Translations under genes and position numbers: made by a program
Assembly (NCBI GenBank): GCA_964573185.1
Contig: CAZNIQ010000030.1
Location: 1-5,989, forward strand
Origin: Candidatus Woesearchaeota archaeon
Lineage (GTDB): Archaea > Nanobdellota > Nanobdellia > Nanobdellales > CAZNIQ01
DNA: 5,989 nucleotides
Direction of reading: 5' to 3'
The notes under the pieces: model-generated
The model's database searches: none
What the model saw: only the letters and a program-made list of their open reading frames with translations
Told to the model about the DNA's origin: nothing
Part shown: in pieces, positions 1 through 5,989 of the stretch
How positions within the stretch are numbered: position 1 is the stretch's first letter
Layout of the letters: each line of letters begins with the position of its first letter

Positions 1-1
1 A

Positions 2-154
2 TTTGAAGAATTTAAAGAAAAATATGTTGAAAATGGAATAATCTACGACCGAATAAAAGAAATAAAAATTGTTAAATCGAATTACAACAAATTATATGAT
101 ATAGGATTAGAGAGCTATCATAATTTTGTTGCAAATGGTGTTGTAGTGCATAAC
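2..154 (+). mobile_element. C-terminal ~51 residues of an intein inserted in rtcB (splicing blocks F/G). The splice junction lies between Asn (152-154) and Cys+1 (155-157).
   Basis: Translation is FEEFKEKYVENGIIYDRIKEIKIVKSNYNKLYDIGLESYHNFVANGVVVHN|CGVRV. The terminal His-Asn followed by Cys, and the preceding YDIxxE..HNFVANG pattern, are the canonical intein C-terminal blocks. RtcB homology resumes exactly at the Cys. Confidence 0.88.
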
Positions 155-1309
155 TGTGGTGTACGTGTTATAAGAACAAATCTAAGAGTAGAAGATGTTA
201 AACCAAAATTAATGGAACTCGTTAATGAAATATTCAGAAATGTTCCTGCTGGAGTGGGTGAAACCGGAAAAGTCCATCTTTCTTTTTCAGAATTGGATAA
301 AGTTTTACAGGAAGGTGCAAAGTGGGCTGTGGAGAATGGATATGGCTGGGAAGACGATTTAGGAAGAATAGAATCGTATGGACATTTAGAAGATGCTGAT
401 CCAGATGCGGTATCAGTTACTGCTAAAAGAAGAGGCGCTCCTCAGTTAGGAACTCTAGGTTCAGGAAATCATTTCTTAGAAATTCAAGTAGTAGATAAGA
501 TATATAATCCAGAAGTTGCAAAAGCCTTTGGAATTGAAGAGGGGGGACAAGTAGTTGTAATGGTTCATACAGGTTCAAGAGGATTAGGACATCAAGTTGC
601 TTCTGATTATATAAGAGAATTCGAAAGAAGATTTAGGGATATCGTTAGAAAATTACCTGATAGAGAATTGGTTTATGCTCCTTGGGGAACAAAGGAAGCA
701 GAAAGATATTGGGGTGCTATGTGTGCTGCAGCAAATTATGCTTGGGCTAACAGACAAATGATAACACACTGGGTTAGAGAATCGTTTGAGAAAGTCTTTA
801 GGACATCTGCAGATCAGTTAGGAATGGAAATAGTATATGATGTTGCACATAACATTGCAAAGATAGAAGAACATAAAGTAAATGGTCAGAAGAAAAAAGT
901 AATTGTTCATAGGAAAGGTGCGACAAGAGCTTTTCCACCAGGGCATCCAGAACTAATTTCTAGGTACAGAAAAGTAGGACAACCAATAATCATACCGGGT
1001 TCAATGGGAACAGCATCATATATCTTGGTAGGTACCGAAAAAGCTATGGAAATTTCATTCGGTTCTACTGCTCACGGAGCTGGAAGACAATTATCTAGAG
1101 CCGAAGCAAAAAGAAGATACAGATATCAGGAAGTTATTAATAGGATGAGGCAACAAGGAATTGTTGTTAAGTCGGCAACAAGGGATGGGGTAGTAGAAGA
1201 AGTACCAGAGGCTTATAAGAACGTTGATGAAGTTGTAAGAGTTTCACATGAATTGGGAATTGGAAAATTAGTAGTTAGACTAAGACCTATAGCAGTTATA
1301 AAGGGTTGA
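2..1309 (+). CDS. rtcB: RNA-splicing ligase RtcB (3'-phosphate/5'-hydroxyl tRNA ligase). 5'-partial: the frame is open from the window edge. It comprises the intein C-terminal segment (2-154) plus the C-extein (155-1309).
   Basis: The frame-2 translation from 155 (CGVRVIRTNL...GAPQLGTLGSGNHFLEIQVVDKIY...VMVHTGSRGLGHQVASDY...ANRQMITHWVRESF...IVHRKGATRAFPPGH...IIIPGSMGTASYIL...FGSTAHGAGR...EEVPEAYKNVDEVV...RLRPIAVIKG*) is collinear with Pyrococcus horikoshii RtcB as I recall it. That includes the GSTxHGAG motif carrying the guanylylated His (codon 1073-1075). The GTG at 146 used by the ORF track is internal, not a start, because the frame stays open to position 2. Confidence 0.95.
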   Translation, partial: FEEFKEKYVENGIIYDRIKEIKIVKSNYNKLYDIGLESYHNFVANGVVVHNCGVRVIRTNLRVEDVKPKLMELVNEIFRNVPAGVGETGKVHLSFSELDKVLQEGAKWAVENGYGWEDDLGRIESYGHLEDADPDAVSVTAKRRGAPQLGTLGSGNHFLEIQVVDKIYNPEVAKAFGIEEGGQVVVMVHTGSRGLGHQVASDYIREFERRFRDIVRKLPDRELVYAPWGTKEAERYWGAMCAAANYAWANRQMITHWVRESFEKVFRTSADQLGMEIVYDVAHNIAKIEEHKVNGQKKKVIVHRKGATRAFPPGHPELISRYRKVGQPIIIPGSMGTASYILVGTEKAMEISFGSTAHGAGRQLSRAEAKRRYRYQEVINRMRQQGIVVKSATRDGVVEEVPEAYKNVDEVVRVSHELGIGKLVVRLRPIAVIKG

Positions 1310-1356: not shown

Positions 1357-1402
1357 AGTTTAGGTTGATATAAAATCCTTATGTCCTATCGGTATAATAG
1401 AT

Positions 1403-2389
1403 GAGATTAAACGAGGTTTTGTAGAGATCATAACTGAGAAAGAGTTTATAGAATTAATAAACGGTAGTAAGTTTAGATTTTATTGGGGAATAGCACCAAC
1501 AGGCCCAATTCACATTGGATATTTTATACCGGTAGTTAAATTTATAGATTTGTTAAAAATTGGAGGAGAAGGAATTATTTTAATAGCAGATTGGCATGCC
1601 TACCTAGATGATAGAAAAACGCCATGGGAGGAAATGGAATTAAGATCAAAATATTATAAATTAGTATTGGAAAGCTTATTAAAACAATTTATTGACTTAG
1701 ATAAGGTAAAATTCGTTTTTGGACACGAATTTCAGAGAAAACCAGAATATATAGAAGATTTAATAAAACTCTCTGGAATGGTTACTGTTAAAAGAGCCAT
1801 TAGAGCAGCCTCAGAGGTAGTAAGAATAAAGAATAATCCTCACGTATCAGAATTAATTTATCCATTAATGCAAGTTTTAGATGTAAAGCACTTAGGTGTT
1901 GATTTAGCAATCGGAGGAATAGATCAAAGACATATTTATGCATTAGGTAGAGAAGTTCTTCCAAAAATAGGATATAAACCTGGAATCTACGCATTTACAC
2001 CTTTACTGACATCTCTAAAAGGAAGAGGAAAAATGTCTGCCTCAATACCAGAGTCTACTATAACTGTACACGATAGTCCAGAGACTTTAAAAGAGAAGGT
2101 AGAAAAAGCATTCTGTCCTTTAGATAAAAAGAACAATCCCATATTAGATATATACAAATACCTTATATTTCCATTATTAGGAAAAATAGAAATAGGTGGG
2201 AAATACTATGAAAAATACGAAAGTTTGGAGAATGATTTTCTAAAAGGAACGTTGCATCCACTGAACTTAAAAAGAGCACTATCAGAATATTTAAATATAA
2301 TATTGGATCCTATCAGAAAAGAATTGCAAAGAAAGGAATTCGTAAAAGAAGTTGTTAATAGATATAGAAGATTGGGTTATAAAATATAG
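1403..2389 (+). CDS. tyrS: Tyrosyl-tRNA synthetase, archaeal type. The 5' end is unresolved: homology starts at about 1403 and the frame is open from 1364. The first canonical in-frame start is the TTG at 1550 used by the ORF track, which is too far downstream.
   Basis: Frame 2 from 1403 reads EIKRGFVEIITEKEFIELINGSKFRFYWGIAPTGPIHIGYFIPVVKFIDLLKIGGEGIILIADWHAYL... This is collinear with Methanocaldococcus jannaschii TyrRS from memory ([62 protein letters not shown]). The HIGH motif appears as HIGY (1511-1522) and KMSKS as KMSAS. The conserved YPLMQVLDVKHLGVDLAIGGIDQR block and the Tyr-binding Tyr/Asp positions are present. Confidence 0.9.
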   Translation, partial: EIKRGFVEIITEKEFIELINGSKFRFYWGIAPTGPIHIGYFIPVVKFIDLLKIGGEGIILIADWHAYLDDRKTPWEEMELRSKYYKLVLESLLKQFIDLDKVKFVFGHEFQRKPEYIEDLIKLSGMVTVKRAIRAASEVVRIKNNPHVSELIYPLMQVLDVKHLGVDLAIGGIDQRHIYALGREVLPKIGYKPGIYAFTPLLTSLKGRGKMSASIPESTITVHDSPETLKEKVEKAFCPLDKKNNPILDIYKYLIFPLLGKIEIGGKYYEKYESLENDFLKGTLHPLNLKRALSEYLNIILDPIRKELQRKEFVKEVVNRYRRLGYKI

Positions 2390-3364: not shown

Positions 3365-3367
3365 TTT

Positions 3368-3419
3368 TGGTGATGAAGGATAGCGGTACTGAACATGATG
3401 AAGTGTTACTCTACTGATC
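3368..3419 (+). ncRNA. Box C/D sRNA (2'-O-methylation guide) with complete C, D', C' and D boxes and two 12-nt guides
   Basis: Read directly from the sequence. C box GUGAUGA is at 3370-3376. Guide 1 AGGAUAGCGGUA is at 3377-3388. D' box CUGA is at 3389-3392. A short spacer follows, then C' box (A)UGAUGA at 3395-3401. Guide 2 AGUGUUACUCUA is at 3402-3413. D box CUGA is at 3414-3417. The total core of about 48 nt and the exact 12-nt spacers are the hallmark archaeal architecture. A TATA-like TTTATTTTTA at 3339-3348 is centred about 26 nt upstream of the C box. Confidence 0.85.
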
Positions 3420-4806
3420 AGATTATTATGCTTAATCTTTTCAATTCAAGATATAACTCTTTTAGAAACTCTTCTAATTTTTCTTTTGGAATAGAAGCTC
3501 CTGCAGCAATATCATGACCGCCACCAACACCCCCCACTTTCAATGCTGCTTTTTCTACAGCCTTTCCTAAATCGCTATCATTTTTATTTACTAATCTTAT
3601 AGAAATCTTTATCGTTCCATCTTCATCTGCAGCAACACCTATAATTCTTTTATCTTTAATCCTAAATGATAGTATAGAAGCAACAGGACTAGTTAAAGTG
3701 GGTCTCAAATTTTTTTCAAAATAAAAAATTAAAATATCCTTATAAACTATTTTCTTAACATTTTCAATATTTTCAAGAGCTTTTAAAATTTCTTTTTTAT
3801 ATTCTAATAAGATATCCAGAGCTTGATCCTTATACTTTTCATCTCCAAGAACAGACGCAATACCAACTGATGGTTTACCCATACGTCCGGTTGCATTTAA
3901 AATATAAGCTATTTCCCTCAGATCTTTAAAGAAAGGATGACTAGAATTCTTTAATAAATAGATATATCCAATAACGTCTTCAGCATTTGGAATATTATAC
4001 TTCATTCTTTTCAGTATAATTGCAGTTATTAGCTTCTTTATCTGTTCTTCATTGAGATCAGAATACTTTATCCAATCCCCTCCTTTTTTCAAAGGAATTC
4101 CTATTTCTTGTAAAAATTGAAGAGCACCTGTTTCAGAACCAGTAACCTCCGGAATGTATATTTCAGTAGAATATTCTAGAACTTTATGCAAAGGTCTTGT
4201 ATATAACCCAAACATTCTTAATCCCTTTTTAACTTCAATTATTCCATTCTCCTGTAATTCTTCTAAAATTTTTTTGTTTAATCCTCTAAATCCTTTTTTA
4301 TCTTCTTGTATATCTCCTATAGCACCAACTAAAGCTAGCCATCCGTAATCTAAAATCTCGTAACTTAAATTTTTCAATAAAAGATATGTTACGCCAGAAG
4401 AAGAAATTTCTTTTGATCCGTCTATTTTGAATATCCTTGGATTTATTTGGAATATTTTACCTATTTTCTTTTCCTTGGAAACTAATTGATGATGGTCTAT
4501 TATAAATGTAGGTATGTATGAAAAGTACTTTCTTAATTCTTCAATGTATCCGCTACCCATATCTAAAAAAATAAGCATATCTTTTTTTACTGAAAGAATA
4601 TCATCAATAGCTTTCTTATCCAAATAATGAAAGAATTTTAATTGAACGATCTTATCTTGATCATATAAATATTTTAACATCAAAGCTGCAGAAGAGAGAC
4701 CATCCGCATCAATATGAGAAACGATTAATATTCTTTTAGCTAAATCAACATAATGTTGAAATTCTTCTGAAACTTCTCTTAAGTATTCCAAAAAAGCATC
4801 TTCCAT
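3418..4806 (-). CDS. recJ: RecJ-like DHH/DHHA1 phosphoesterase (archaeal RecJ/Cdc45 homologue, GAN-like), 462 aa
   Basis: All DHH-family motifs are intact. They are VSHIDADGLSS (DxD), FLDMGSG, IIDHHQ (DHH codons 4489-4497) and the C-terminal DHHA1 GGGHDIAAGA (His codon 3514-3516). Length and domain order match archaeal GAN/RecJ proteins. Confidence 0.9.
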   Translation of the reverse strand: MEDAFLEYLREVSEEFQHYVDLAKRILIVSHIDADGLSSAALMLKYLYDQDKIVQLKFFHYLDKKAIDDILSVKKDMLIFLDMGSGYIEELRKYFSYIPTFIIDHHQLVSKEKKIGKIFQINPRIFKIDGSKEISSSGVTYLLLKNLSYEILDYGWLALVGAIGDIQEDKKGFRGLNKKILEELQENGIIEVKKGLRMFGLYTRPLHKVLEYSTEIYIPEVTGSETGALQFLQEIGIPLKKGGDWIKYSDLNEEQIKKLITAIILKRMKYNIPNAEDVIGYIYLLKNSSHPFFKDLREIAYILNATGRMGKPSVGIASVLGDEKYKDQALDILLEYKKEILKALENIENVKKIVYKDILIFYFEKNLRPTLTSPVASILSFRIKDKRIIGVAADEDGTIKISIRLVNKNDSDLGKAVEKAALKVGGVGGGHDIAAGASIPKEKLEEFLKELYLELKRLSIII

Positions 4807-4842: not shown

Positions 4843-5244
4843 TTAAGTAGAACCGTAAATCTTTGCTATTTCGTCGTTGAATTCCCAATAAGCAGGTAGC
4901 TTACCAACTCTTTTATAATATTTTACTAAACTCCTTATCTTTCCCTCTATTGCCTCCAAATTCTTTTTATTTTTCATATCTTTTCTATGAACTTCTAAAT
5001 GCTTTTTAACTCTCCAATACTTCTTAATTAAATACAACAAATCCTCCGGAATTTCCGGAGCAACCCCATGTTCTTCTAGAATCTGTAATATAGATTTCCC
5101 TGTAATTGCTCTAACATCTGGTATTCCATATTGATCCCTCAAAATTAATCCTATCTTTGAAGGAGTATATCCTTCCTTTGCTAATCTAACGACTAACTGC
5201 TCAACTTCTTCAGGTTTATAAGGAACCCACTTATATTTCTCCAT
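4843..5244 (-). CDS. rps15: 30S ribosomal protein uS15 (S15P/S13e), 133 aa, lacking the usual N-terminal basic tail
   Basis: [116 protein letters not shown] is collinear with archaeal S15P and eukaryotic S13e as recalled (..LRDQYGIP.V...[17 protein letters not shown]...RKHLE...KD....L.LIESKIRRL.KYYK..GKLP..W). Confidence 0.92.
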
Positions 5245-5265
5245 TAAAGAACTAAAGAAAATATG

Positions 5266-5277
5266 TTTTTAAGGTTG
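5266..5277 (-). promoter_or_regulatory. Promoter-like element CAACCTTAAAAA (minus strand), copy 1, about 25 nt upstream of the uS15 ATG
   Basis: The TTAAAAA core is centred near 5269 and the ATG A is at 5244. This is the archaeal TATA-to-start spacing, implying a leaderless rps15 mRNA. The core 10-mer AACCTTAAAA recurs at 5346-5355. Confidence 0.4.
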
Positions 5278-5323
5278 CCGACCGGGGTTCATCGTACCCC
5301 TTTCAGGATCTCGCCCTGGGAAC
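5273..5323 (-). ncRNA. Unclassified GC-rich structured island, a candidate small RNA. Strand is tentative and the element is not a recognisable tRNA or canonical C/D sRNA.
   Basis: The 51 nt contain 32 G+C (63%), against about 30% in the surroundings. There are two hairpins. Hairpin 1 is GGGGT (5284-5288) paired with ACCCC (5296-5300) around a 7-nt loop. Hairpin 2 is CAGG (5304-5307) paired with CCTG (5315-5318) around a 7-nt loop. The flanks GTT (5274-5276) and AAC (5321-5323) can close a three-way junction. A copy of the AACCTTAAAA promoter-like motif is centred about 26 nt upstream of the minus-strand 5' edge (G at 5323). GC islands mark RNA genes in AT-rich thermophile genomes. Confidence 0.4.
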
Positions 5324-5331
5324 AAAACATT

Positions 5332-5339
5332 AATTTATC
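5332..5339 (+). promoter_or_regulatory. TATA-like box AATTTATC about 25 nt upstream of ATG 5360
   Basis: The spacing is consistent with a leaderless mRNA for the plus-strand ORF. The match is weak and the context is AT-rich. Confidence 0.3.
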
Positions 5340-5344
5340 TTAAA

Positions 5345-5356
5345 CTTTTAAGGTTT
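5345..5356 (-). promoter_or_regulatory. Promoter-like element AAACCTTAAAAG (minus strand), copy 2, about 26 nt upstream of the GC-rich island
   Basis: It shares an exact 10-nt core (plus strand ttttaaggtt, 5346-5355) with copy 1 (5267-5276). The distance to the island edge at 5323 equals the distance from copy 1 to the rps15 ATG. Confidence 0.35.
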
Positions 5357-5359
5357 TTA

Positions 5360-5989
5360 ATGAAAATAATAATTAATCCTTTAAGGGATTTTGAAGCTGC
5401 TGTGATCTTAAGAGCACTGTATTATGCAACAGGATTAGAAAATGTAGAAATTTATGTAACTAAAGTAAAAAATATTTTATCTTTTGCAAGATACTCAAGA
5501 GTTCCTGTATATGTGATTAAAAATAAAGTTAAATTTGAAAAACCCAAAATAAAAGGTATAATTTTAGATCCATATGCTGATAAAGAATTAGATTTCATAC
5601 CAGAAATACTAATAATAGATTTCATAGGAGAATATTCGGGAAAAAGATACAAAGTGTTAGGAACGTCCCTACTACATTATGAAGCTATAGCTTTTATCTA
5701 TAAGTTCTTTTTAAGAAAAAGAGAAATTCAAATTGATATTGAAAATGAAATAAATAGAGATTTAATTTATTTTGCTAGAAAGCTTTTGGAAGGGATAAGG
5801 GATATCGATAATTACCCTTATATATCACCGAGATTGATAATTTTTGCTTTAAGACATATTGAAAAGAAGTATAATATATTGGTAGATTATAGAAAAGTTA
5901 ACTTAAAGATAGATAATGAAAATGGAGAAATTATAATGGAAATTTTGATAGATTTCTTTGACAGAAAGCTGAATAAAGTGAAGGAAGAT
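5360..5989 (+). CDS. Hypothetical protein, 3'-partial (210 codons open to the window edge), absent from the supplied ORF track
   Basis: I translated frame 2 by hand from ATG 5360 and found no stop through 5989. The sequence is MKIIINPLRDFEAAVILRALYYATGLENVEIYVTKVKNILSFARYSRVPVYVIKNKVKFEKPKIKGIILDPYADKELDFIPEILIIDFIGEYSGKRYKVLGTSLLHYEAIAFIYKFFLRKREIQIDIENEINRDLIYFARKLLEGIRDIDNYPYISPRLIIFALRHIEKKYNILVDYRKVNLKIDNENGEIIMEILIDFFDRKLNKVKED. A 630-nt open frame in about 30% GC DNA is very unlikely by chance. I recognise no family. Confidence 0.8.
   Translation, partial: MKIIINPLRDFEAAVILRALYYATGLENVEIYVTKVKNILSFARYSRVPVYVIKNKVKFEKPKIKGIILDPYADKELDFIPEILIIDFIGEYSGKRYKVLGTSLLHYEAIAFIYKFFLRKREIQIDIENEINRDLIYFARKLLEGIRDIDNYPYISPRLIIFALRHIEKKYNILVDYRKVNLKIDNENGEIIMEILIDFFDRKLNKVKED

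Follow-up and report, generated by a model that had tools for sequence, protein, structure and literature searches.

This study concerns a 5,989-nucleotide (nt) stretch of DNA from a Candidatus Woesearchaeota archaeon (contig CAZNIQ010000030.1), referred to in its full length as the window, and in particular a GC-rich island in the spacer between two divergent genes. On the minus strand lies rps15 (4843-5244), which encodes a uS15 protein of 133 amino acids (aa) with matches to Pfam Ribosomal_S13_N (6.9e-16) and Ribosomal_S15 (1.8e-12). On the plus strand, an open reading frame (ORF) starts at 5360 and runs past the window end at 5989. The island occupies 5273-5323, and its 51 nt (GGTTGCCGACCGGGGTTCATCGTACCCCTTTCAGGATCTCGCCCTGGGAAC) include 32 G or C. 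The window as a whole has a GC content of 31%, that of a nanoarchaeal-type genome, and in 50-nt windows the island reaches 0.60 compared with 0.12-0.40 in its surroundings. We confirmed the earlier observation, made from the sequence alone, that this is the sole non-coding block of such composition in the window (the only one with at least 55% GC), and its GC content is also exceptional among the non-coding DNA of the lineage. A near-identical locus (99.7-99.9% identity) is found in three assemblies, namely the window, L001/L091 (ENA) and L003 (JGI), and the island is identical in L001 and L003. The sequence-only reading proposed that the island is an undescribed small RNA (sRNA) or a leader of the uS15 gene. 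Related spacers show that the island lies in a stretch of ~79 bases that close relatives lack partly or wholly, and we therefore regard it as most likely a dispensable insertion at the strain level rather than a small RNA under conservation or a leader that regulates S15.

The island contains two hairpins with 7-nt loops, and both are part of the minimum-energy fold. Hairpin 1 (5284-5300) is formed by GGGGT (5284-5288) and ACCCC (5296-5300), and because its arms are palindromic it forms on either strand. Hairpin 2 (5301-5321, plus strand) has the core CAGG (5304-5307)/CCTG (5315-5318), and reaches 7 base pairs (bp) on the plus strand through two G-U pairs, with only 4 bp on the minus strand. 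Outside them, GTT at 5274-5276 is able to pair with AAC at 5321-5323. Direct reading and folding thus recovered every pairing that the sequence-only reading had described, and the strand of the island stays as ambiguous as it had stated. The minimum free energies were -17.8 kcal/mol (plus) and -13.5 kcal/mol (minus), with shuffle means of -16.3 and -15.8 kcal/mol, so that both strands fall inside the shuffle distribution (z of -0.52 and +0.74, respectively). The hairpins are what any sequence of the composition of the island would form. A 7-bp inverted repeat, ATGTTTT/AAAACAT, also flanks the island (5264-5270 and 5324-5330) and is retained in the related contig L002; this repeat may be incidental because one of its arms overlaps the rps15 promoter region.

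Promoter geometry and related spacers

An exact 10-mer occurs at 5267-5276 and again at 5346-5355, as had been noted from the sequence, and has no other occurrence in the window. On the minus strand, 22 nt follow each copy and are in turn followed by A5244 of the rps15 ATG (copy 1) or by G5323 (copy 2), and TTAAAA starts at -28 from both of these bases. Copy 1 (AACCTTAAAA, minus strand) is predicted to comprise the part of the B recognition element (BRE) next to box A, together with box A (TATA), of a leaderless rps15 promoter. It is orthologous to AATCTTAAAA in the related contig L084, which lies at an equal distance of 22 nt from the ATG. Copy 2, a predicted second box A on the minus strand, is separated by 4 nt from the ATG of the divergent ORF. 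The repeat by itself is mildly unusual, being found in 1-2% of shuffles, and when natural stretches of 115 nt were taken from the same contig, ~5% contained a direct repeat of at least 10 nt. An AT-rich segment (5324-5345, plus strand) separates the island from copy 2 and contains TTAATT at 5330-5335, which is the likely box A of the divergent ORF at -30 from ATG 5360. On the other side, 12 nt beyond the island on the minus strand, the T-tract TTTTCTTT (5254-5261) is a possible archaeal oligo-T terminator for a transcript that would start at G5323.

We surveyed 33 spacer-heading genes in three related contigs. Box-A-like hexamers peak at -30 to -27 from the ATG, and start at -31 to -25 in 22 of the 33 genes. 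No Shine-Dalgarno motifs were found among these genes, which together with the position of the box A peak indicates a leaderless gene architecture. The peak agrees with the box A position of -26/-27 in Nanoarchaeum equitans, and T-stretch terminators have been described in Nanoarchaeum as well (PMC3491384). Copy 1 is, on this sequence pattern, the predicted rps15 promoter, and since it lies between the island and the ATG, the island would be outside the main rps15 mRNA. The distance from copy 2 to G5323, with which the island begins on the minus strand, is likewise exactly 28 nt, and copy 2 may therefore act as an active promoter from which the island is transcribed on this strand. The tandem promoters suggested by the sequence-only reading are accordingly borne out in their spacing, and the sRNA that they were thought to serve fails the test of conservation described below. 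Copy 2 and the box A of the divergent ORF are interleaved exactly like the two promoters of L084, and copy 2 looks like an old rps15 box A that was left in place and now faces the island.

Orthologous spacers were retrieved by exact look-up of the S15 protein and its closest homologues and were aligned with MAFFT. In L002, whose DNA is 89.6% identical and whose S15 protein is identical, both 10-mers are kept, copy 2 at 10 of its 10 positions, with GCCATCGGCAACC in place of the island. Here 38 nt (~5283-5320) are gone together with both hairpins. Between the window and L002, identity is 97-100% in the AT-rich parts of the spacer (21 of 22 nt at 5324-5345) and 89.6% in the genes, which points to flanks that are constrained and a GC-rich core that is not. 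In L084 and L085, whose S15 is 87% identical, the gene order is the same (divergent ORF, then S15 and DHH genes in the other direction), and the spacer is 37 nt long (CAT AAAGAAATCTTAAAAACGTAATTACTTAAGTTTTTAG ATG) with no island. This spacer has a single 10-mer with both of its flanks, separated by 5 nt from the start of the ORF and by 22 nt from that of S15. Compared with L084, the window has ~79 extra nt bounded by the 10-nt direct repeat (a gap of 78 nt in the MAFFT alignment). For the 32 nt next to S15 (5245-5276), the alignment with the L084 spacer has p<0.0005, indicating that they are orthologous, and the similarity of the 22 nt at 5324-5345 to this spacer is not significant (p=0.32). 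More distant relatives showed other arrangements. L087-L090 (S15 72% identical) have a different upstream gene and an AT-rich spacer, and L086 (S15 83% identical) has a tRNA 5' exon at the position of the spacer. When GTDB genomes and JGI metagenomes were scanned with S15, no other close relatives came up, the best matches outside the same contig being 66% and 64% identical, and a family search with the divergent ORF gave no further alleles.

With both stems deleted in L002 and the whole block absent in L084 and L085, the spacers do not support a conserved small RNA. This absence of stem conservation in relatives is the outcome that the sequence-only reading had itself named beforehand as speaking against its proposal. 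Its third suggestion, a small insertion bracketed by the duplicated 10-mer, agrees with the single 10-mer and both flanks of L084, and a deletion in L084 would give the same picture. We rejected a tandem duplication of the whole ancestral spacer, considering that only the 10-mer and the 4 nt next to the ORF are demonstrably duplicated.

Known RNA and element classes

Rfam was searched on both strands at E<=10 with the whole window and with 126 nt alone, and neither this search nor ARAGORN gave anything on the island. The check for a known RNA that the sequence-only reading had called for therefore returned no family match. For fragments these negative results carry little weight, since the searches likewise missed a clear tRNA exon of 33 nt at another place on the contig. 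As positive controls of the family searches, the box C/D sRNA at 3367-3418 was found as sR5 and the H/ACA hairpin at L084 13086-13141 as HgcF.

In terms of box C/D architecture, the minus strand of the island begins with GUUCCCAG and ends with GGCAACC, with no C box (RUGAUGA) near the 5' end and no D box (CUGA) near the 3' end, and the plus strand has neither. A K-loop had been suggested from CUGA followed by ACGAUGA on the minus strand in D'-to-C' order. Both motifs are present in this order; the CUGA is the complement of 5303-5306 and not of 5304-5307, and its gap to ACGAUGA is 7 nt and not 8, the shorter CGAUGA (complement of 5289-5294) being 8 nt away. This pair resembles a C'/D' K-loop, but its spacer is GC-rich and 7-9 nt long, the CGAUGA belongs to the loop of a stable hairpin, and there is no covariance-model match. 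In the genuine C/D sRNAs of this genome, the spacer is 2-4 nt long and the boxes are canonical in both sequence and order. The CUGA...CGAUGA pair is thus the one feature that speaks for a putative K-loop on an island that lacks the terminal C and D boxes. For H/ACA RNAs, neither strand has a nested lower stem, pocket and upper stem, all stems are separated by 3-8 nt from the nearest ACA, and Rfam gave no H/ACA match. The island has ACGAUGA and CCGGUCGGC in common with the H/ACA sRNA of L084 and, like it, adjoins a CCTTAAAAA box A of the neighbouring gene; unlike it, the island has no nested stems and pocket, no tandem G-A K-loop and no stem-adjacent ACA, and its fold z is ~0 compared with -4.3. 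On these grounds of architecture, we rejected a degenerate H/ACA or C/D sRNA.

No D-arm, T-loop (UUCRANY) or acceptor pairing could be placed on either strand, where the island loops read UCAUCGU and AUCUCGC or their complements. The 11-mer GACCGGGGTTC equals positions 45-56 (the T-arm region) of a tRNA-Gln of the same contig and is the best local match of the island to the tRNA set of the lineage (p=0.024), and GGGGTACGATG is identical in 10 of 11 positions to the junction of exon and intervening sequence in this tRNA-Gln, with p=0.16 for the match to the ends of the Gln insertion. Given these p values, which were obtained against shuffles, we do not rely on the similarities to tRNA-Gln. A tRNA, tRNA half or permuted tRNA was rejected because ARAGORN was empty, manual arm placement failed and the 11-mer was too weak. 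Leader/trailer pairing with the tRNA-Gln halves, the only halves at hand and on the same contig, reached 7 contiguous bp (alignment p=0.16), compared with the 12-16 nt expected of a complementary leader or trailer. A partner or relic of the insertion that splits tRNA-Gln was also rejected: the common words are GCCGACC, AAAGGGGT and GGGGTAC-ATG, and the p value of 0.16 is that of the gapped alignment. The tRNA-half, H/ACA and some C/D sRNA genes of N. equitans (PMC3491384) resemble the island in having a box A ~26-28 nt upstream, transcription that would begin at a purine, a body of ~50 nt that is GC-rich within an AT-rich genome, and a T-stretch further down. Unlike these genes, the island has no tRNA arms, leader/trailer partner or well-placed C/D or ACA boxes, and is not conserved even at 89.6% DNA identity.

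Among mobile and regulatory elements, the locus is similar to insertions with a target-site duplication or filler DNA, in that ~79 extra nt lie within an exact 10-nt direct repeat and the relative has a single 'empty' site, the 10-mer being single-copy in L084. On the other hand, it differs from them in having no transposase, and in AT-rich DNA the occurrence of such a pair of 10-mers is only slightly improbable. The ends of the 69-nt insert (GTTTAAG... and ...GGTCGGC) are not inverted repeats as in miniature inverted-repeat transposable elements (MITEs), and no other copy was found in 443 kb of fetched loci or in the phage, plasmid and IMG/VR collections. These three collections gave chance matches only, and a foreign origin was rejected. 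The segment GTTCCCAGGGCGAGATCCTGAAAG has ends like those of a clustered regularly interspaced short palindromic repeat (CRISPR), but it occurs once and matches no CRISPR direct repeat. An origin recognition box (ORB; TTCC...GAAA GGGGT) was dismissed, being in single copy, wrongly spaced, absent in relatives and without orc1/cdc6 nearby. A micro-ORF, MNPGRQP, has 7 codons only and no Shine-Dalgarno sequence. Finally, a remnant of the N-terminal coding part of uS15 was rejected, as the three minus-strand frames are unlike MARMHARRKGKSGSKKPP and relatives that lack this N-terminus have AT-rich spacers.

Interpretation of the island

We favour, with about an even chance of being right, the view that the island is the GC-rich core of a non-conserved, strain-level indel in the divergent promoter region of rps15 and the SPOUT-like methyltransferase gene (the divergent ORF), a passenger without conserved function. 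Three parts make up the extra ~79 nt, namely one more copy of the 10-nt box-A sequence of rps15, a 47-nt GC-rich block and an AT-rich piece of 22 nt in which the likely box A of the methyltransferase gene now lies. The window thus has two separate predicted promoters, compared with two interleaved ones in the relative. Copy 1 would continue to drive leaderless rps15, and copy 2, in its old place beside the ATG of the other gene, would probably start a short non-coding transcript at G5323, which would end at the T-tract or read into rps15. Several points weigh against this view. All the other intergenic blocks of high GC content in the lineage are RNA genes (tRNAs, tRNA halves and an H/ACA sRNA), and a block of 63% GC that starts exactly at a predicted transcription start is suspicious as a possible RNA gene. 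No source of the GC-rich block was found in the 443 kb of loci or in the phage, plasmid and viral collections. The comparison rests on only three informative lineages, and a deletion between two 10-mers in the L084 lineage would fit the picture equally, since the outgroups at hand do not separate it from an insertion.

The composition of the block and its position relative to copy 2 also favour a young, lineage-restricted sRNA gene on the minus strand, with the copy 2 promoter, a 5' end at G5323 and the T-tract terminator. A duplication of the rps15 box A would have left one copy driving a GC-rich transcript of 51 to ~70 nt, limited to this strain cluster; its CUGA/CGAUGA pair might recruit L7Ae, and transcription through the rps15 promoter could modulate S15 synthesis. 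The exact promoter spacing, the purine start, the likeness to the nanoarchaeal tRNA-half and sRNA genes and the complete copy 2 of L002 are consistent with such a newborn gene. We nevertheless consider it unlikely, because L002 has lost both hairpins and the CUGA/CGAUGA pair and L084 lacks them all, the minus-strand fold is worse than those of shuffles, and the searched sets held no family match or second copy, nor does the island have terminal C/D boxes or a stem-adjacent ACA. The block could instead be filler DNA, namely a decayed fragment of a GC-rich gene or element such as a piece of a tRNA or split tRNA, an H/ACA hairpin or an end of the element that splits tRNA-Gln. In addition to the tRNA-Gln similarities given above, the island shares CCGGTCGGC and ACGATGA with the H/ACA sRNA of L084. 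The heptamer GCCGACC/GGTCGGC is rare, with five occurrences in ~75 kb of lineage DNA that all lie in RNA-like islands, and GCCGACC is common to the island, the junction helix of tRNA-Gln, the trailer of L086 and the H/ACA RNA of L084. This origin seems quite improbable, considering that the tRNA-Gln similarities are at chance level, that no tRNA arm could be placed, that the common motifs differ in order and strand from the H/ACA RNA, and that no H/ACA model matches the island, in contrast to the L084 element.

The plus strand folds better than the minus strand owing to the two G-U pairs, and this would suit a 5' leader of the methyltransferase mRNA or, at the DNA level, an operator of two palindromes between the divergent promoters. 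In the leader variant, a relic box CTAAAG (5252-5257) would start the transcript near 5281 and give a leader of ~79 nt that includes both hairpins. The L084 region orthologous to 5245-5276 contains the box A of the divergent gene, and a Shine-Dalgarno-like AAGGU (AAGGT, 5349-5353) lies 5 nt before ATG 5360. However, TTAATT at -30 already serves a leaderless start, the relic box has no TTAA core, the plus-strand fold is no better than those of shuffles, L002 has kept the gene without the hairpins and L084 lacks AAGGT, so that we regard this explanation as very unlikely. A structured rps15 leader bound by uS15 for self-repression, the archaeal counterpart of the bacterial rpsO (S15) leader, is hardly credible. 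The island shares with the rpsO leaders its place upstream of the S15 gene and a multi-helix fold, possibly a three-way junction, and a read-through transcript from copy 2 would include it. In contrast to them, it lies upstream of the rps15 promoter and outside the mRNA, since the box A at 5267-5276 separates it from the ATG. The genes here follow the leaderless pattern (22 of 33 in the survey), no Shine-Dalgarno sequence precedes the rps15 ATG, Rfam gave no ribosomal-leader match on the island, and the element is missing or truncated beside uS15 genes that are identical or 87% identical. The autoregulatory leader offered by the sequence-only reading is thus close to refuted.

The locus calls for caution, in that a GC-rich intergenic block in an AT-rich hyperthermophile genome strongly hints at an RNA gene, and this island fails the conservation, structure and family tests. 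Under the indel explanation, it is a case of a 37-nt interleaved divergent promoter that was drawn apart by a short insertion with duplication of a promoter. If the sRNA explanation were true, the locus would offer a rare view of an archaeal sRNA gene at a very young age, beside its ancestral state.

The interrupted tRNA-Gln and other genes

A tRNA-Gln(UUG) interrupted at 32/33 lies on the same contig, ~5 kb outside the window (window coordinate = L091 coordinate - 8451). Both exons are on the minus strand, the 5' exon at L091 3426-3394 and the 3' exon at 2304-2265, with 1,089 nt between them, and it was missed by both ARAGORN and Rfam. When joined, the exons match the intact tRNA-Gln of L087 in 73 of 73 positions. 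In the flanks, a 16-bp leader/trailer helix adjoins a 4-bp helix bounded by two 3-nt bulges, which constitutes a bulge-helix-bulge site, and the 3' half has its own TATAAA ~26 nt upstream. A 331-aa ORF (P0130) inside the interruption has no homologue in 5.8 billion proteins, and therefore no mobile-element family is definable. This gene is either a recently split tRNA or a tRNA with a giant ORF-bearing intron, and it resembles the 'recently split' tRNAs of PMC3218864. It is of more general interest than the island as another case for the debate on the origins of split tRNAs. A similar arrangement is seen on the minus strand of L086 (25-70), immediately before the 83%-identical rps15 and in divergent orientation to it, where the tRNA 5' exon GGGCCGGTAGCTCAGCCTGGAAGAGCGCCGGTC is followed by the GC-rich trailer CCGCCGACCGCCG and by AT-rich DNA to the contig end. 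It looks like a second tRNA interrupted just after the 5' strand of the anticodon stem, with the GCCGACC word of the Gln junction.

The H/ACA guide sRNA of L084 (13086-13141, plus strand; Rfam HgcF, E=1.4e-4) is a single hairpin between the promoter of an NFACT gene and a tRNA-Ile, with a 7-bp lower stem, a pocket, a 9-bp upper stem, the K-loop GAACGAUGA and an ACA box. The tRNA-Ile (13178-13269, plus strand) has the anticodon UAU and a canonical intron of 18 nt. tRNA-Ile(UAU) is a rare isoacceptor that has been reported in Nanoarchaeum. In the window, the box C/D sRNA at 3367-3418 (plus strand) has canonical C, D', C' and D boxes (Rfam sR5, 28 bits, E=0.0014) and is kept at L084 610-663 with a nearly identical first guide. 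More C/D-box sRNA candidates were noted on the same contig at L001 8162-8216 (minus), L001 9574-9628 (minus), L091 ~3460-3515 (plus) and L177 ~15570-15625 (plus). One of them lies directly upstream of tRNA-Ser(CGA) and may form a dicistronic sRNA-tRNA unit, and one overlaps the called start of a GATase-like gene beside the 5' half of tRNA-Gln.

The divergent ORF is full-length in L002 (572-1366) and L084 (9166-9963), with 264-265 aa. A Pfam search with it gave no match. Its family is small and found in DPANN archaea only, with Nanopusillaceae and Aenigmatarchaeota among the names. The AlphaFold model (predicted local distance difference test of 82.7) had TrmJ, TrmL and YibK as top Foldseek matches (probability ~1, template-modelling score ~0.5), and according to this model the protein is predicted to have a SPOUT-like RNA methyltransferase fold in its N-terminal 150-170 residues and a beta-rich C-terminal domain. 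The nearest named relatives of S15 and of the divergent ORF are Nanoarchaeota, Nanopusillaceae and other DPANN archaea. The uS15 of the window starts with MEKYKWVPY, and the basic N-terminal segment MARMHARRKGKSGSKKPP of the other archaeal uS15 proteins examined is missing from it and from its close relatives (130-132 aa).

The remaining genes of the window include a tRNA-binding protein, two small ORFs and a RecJ/Cdc45-like DHH protein. The RtcB tRNA ligase gene is represented by its C-terminal part only (1-1309, plus strand); the full gene (L001 4633-7512) contains an intein with a LAGLIDADG homing-endonuclease domain and encodes 959 aa in all. Downstream of it, a TyrRS/TrpRS-type synthetase ORF (1364-2389, plus strand) is open from 1364, and its HIGH-type motif PTGPIHIGY (1496-1522) precedes the first ATG, GTG or TTG codon (TTG 1550), which indicates a non-canonical start (ATA or ATC near 1370-1397) or a sequence error.

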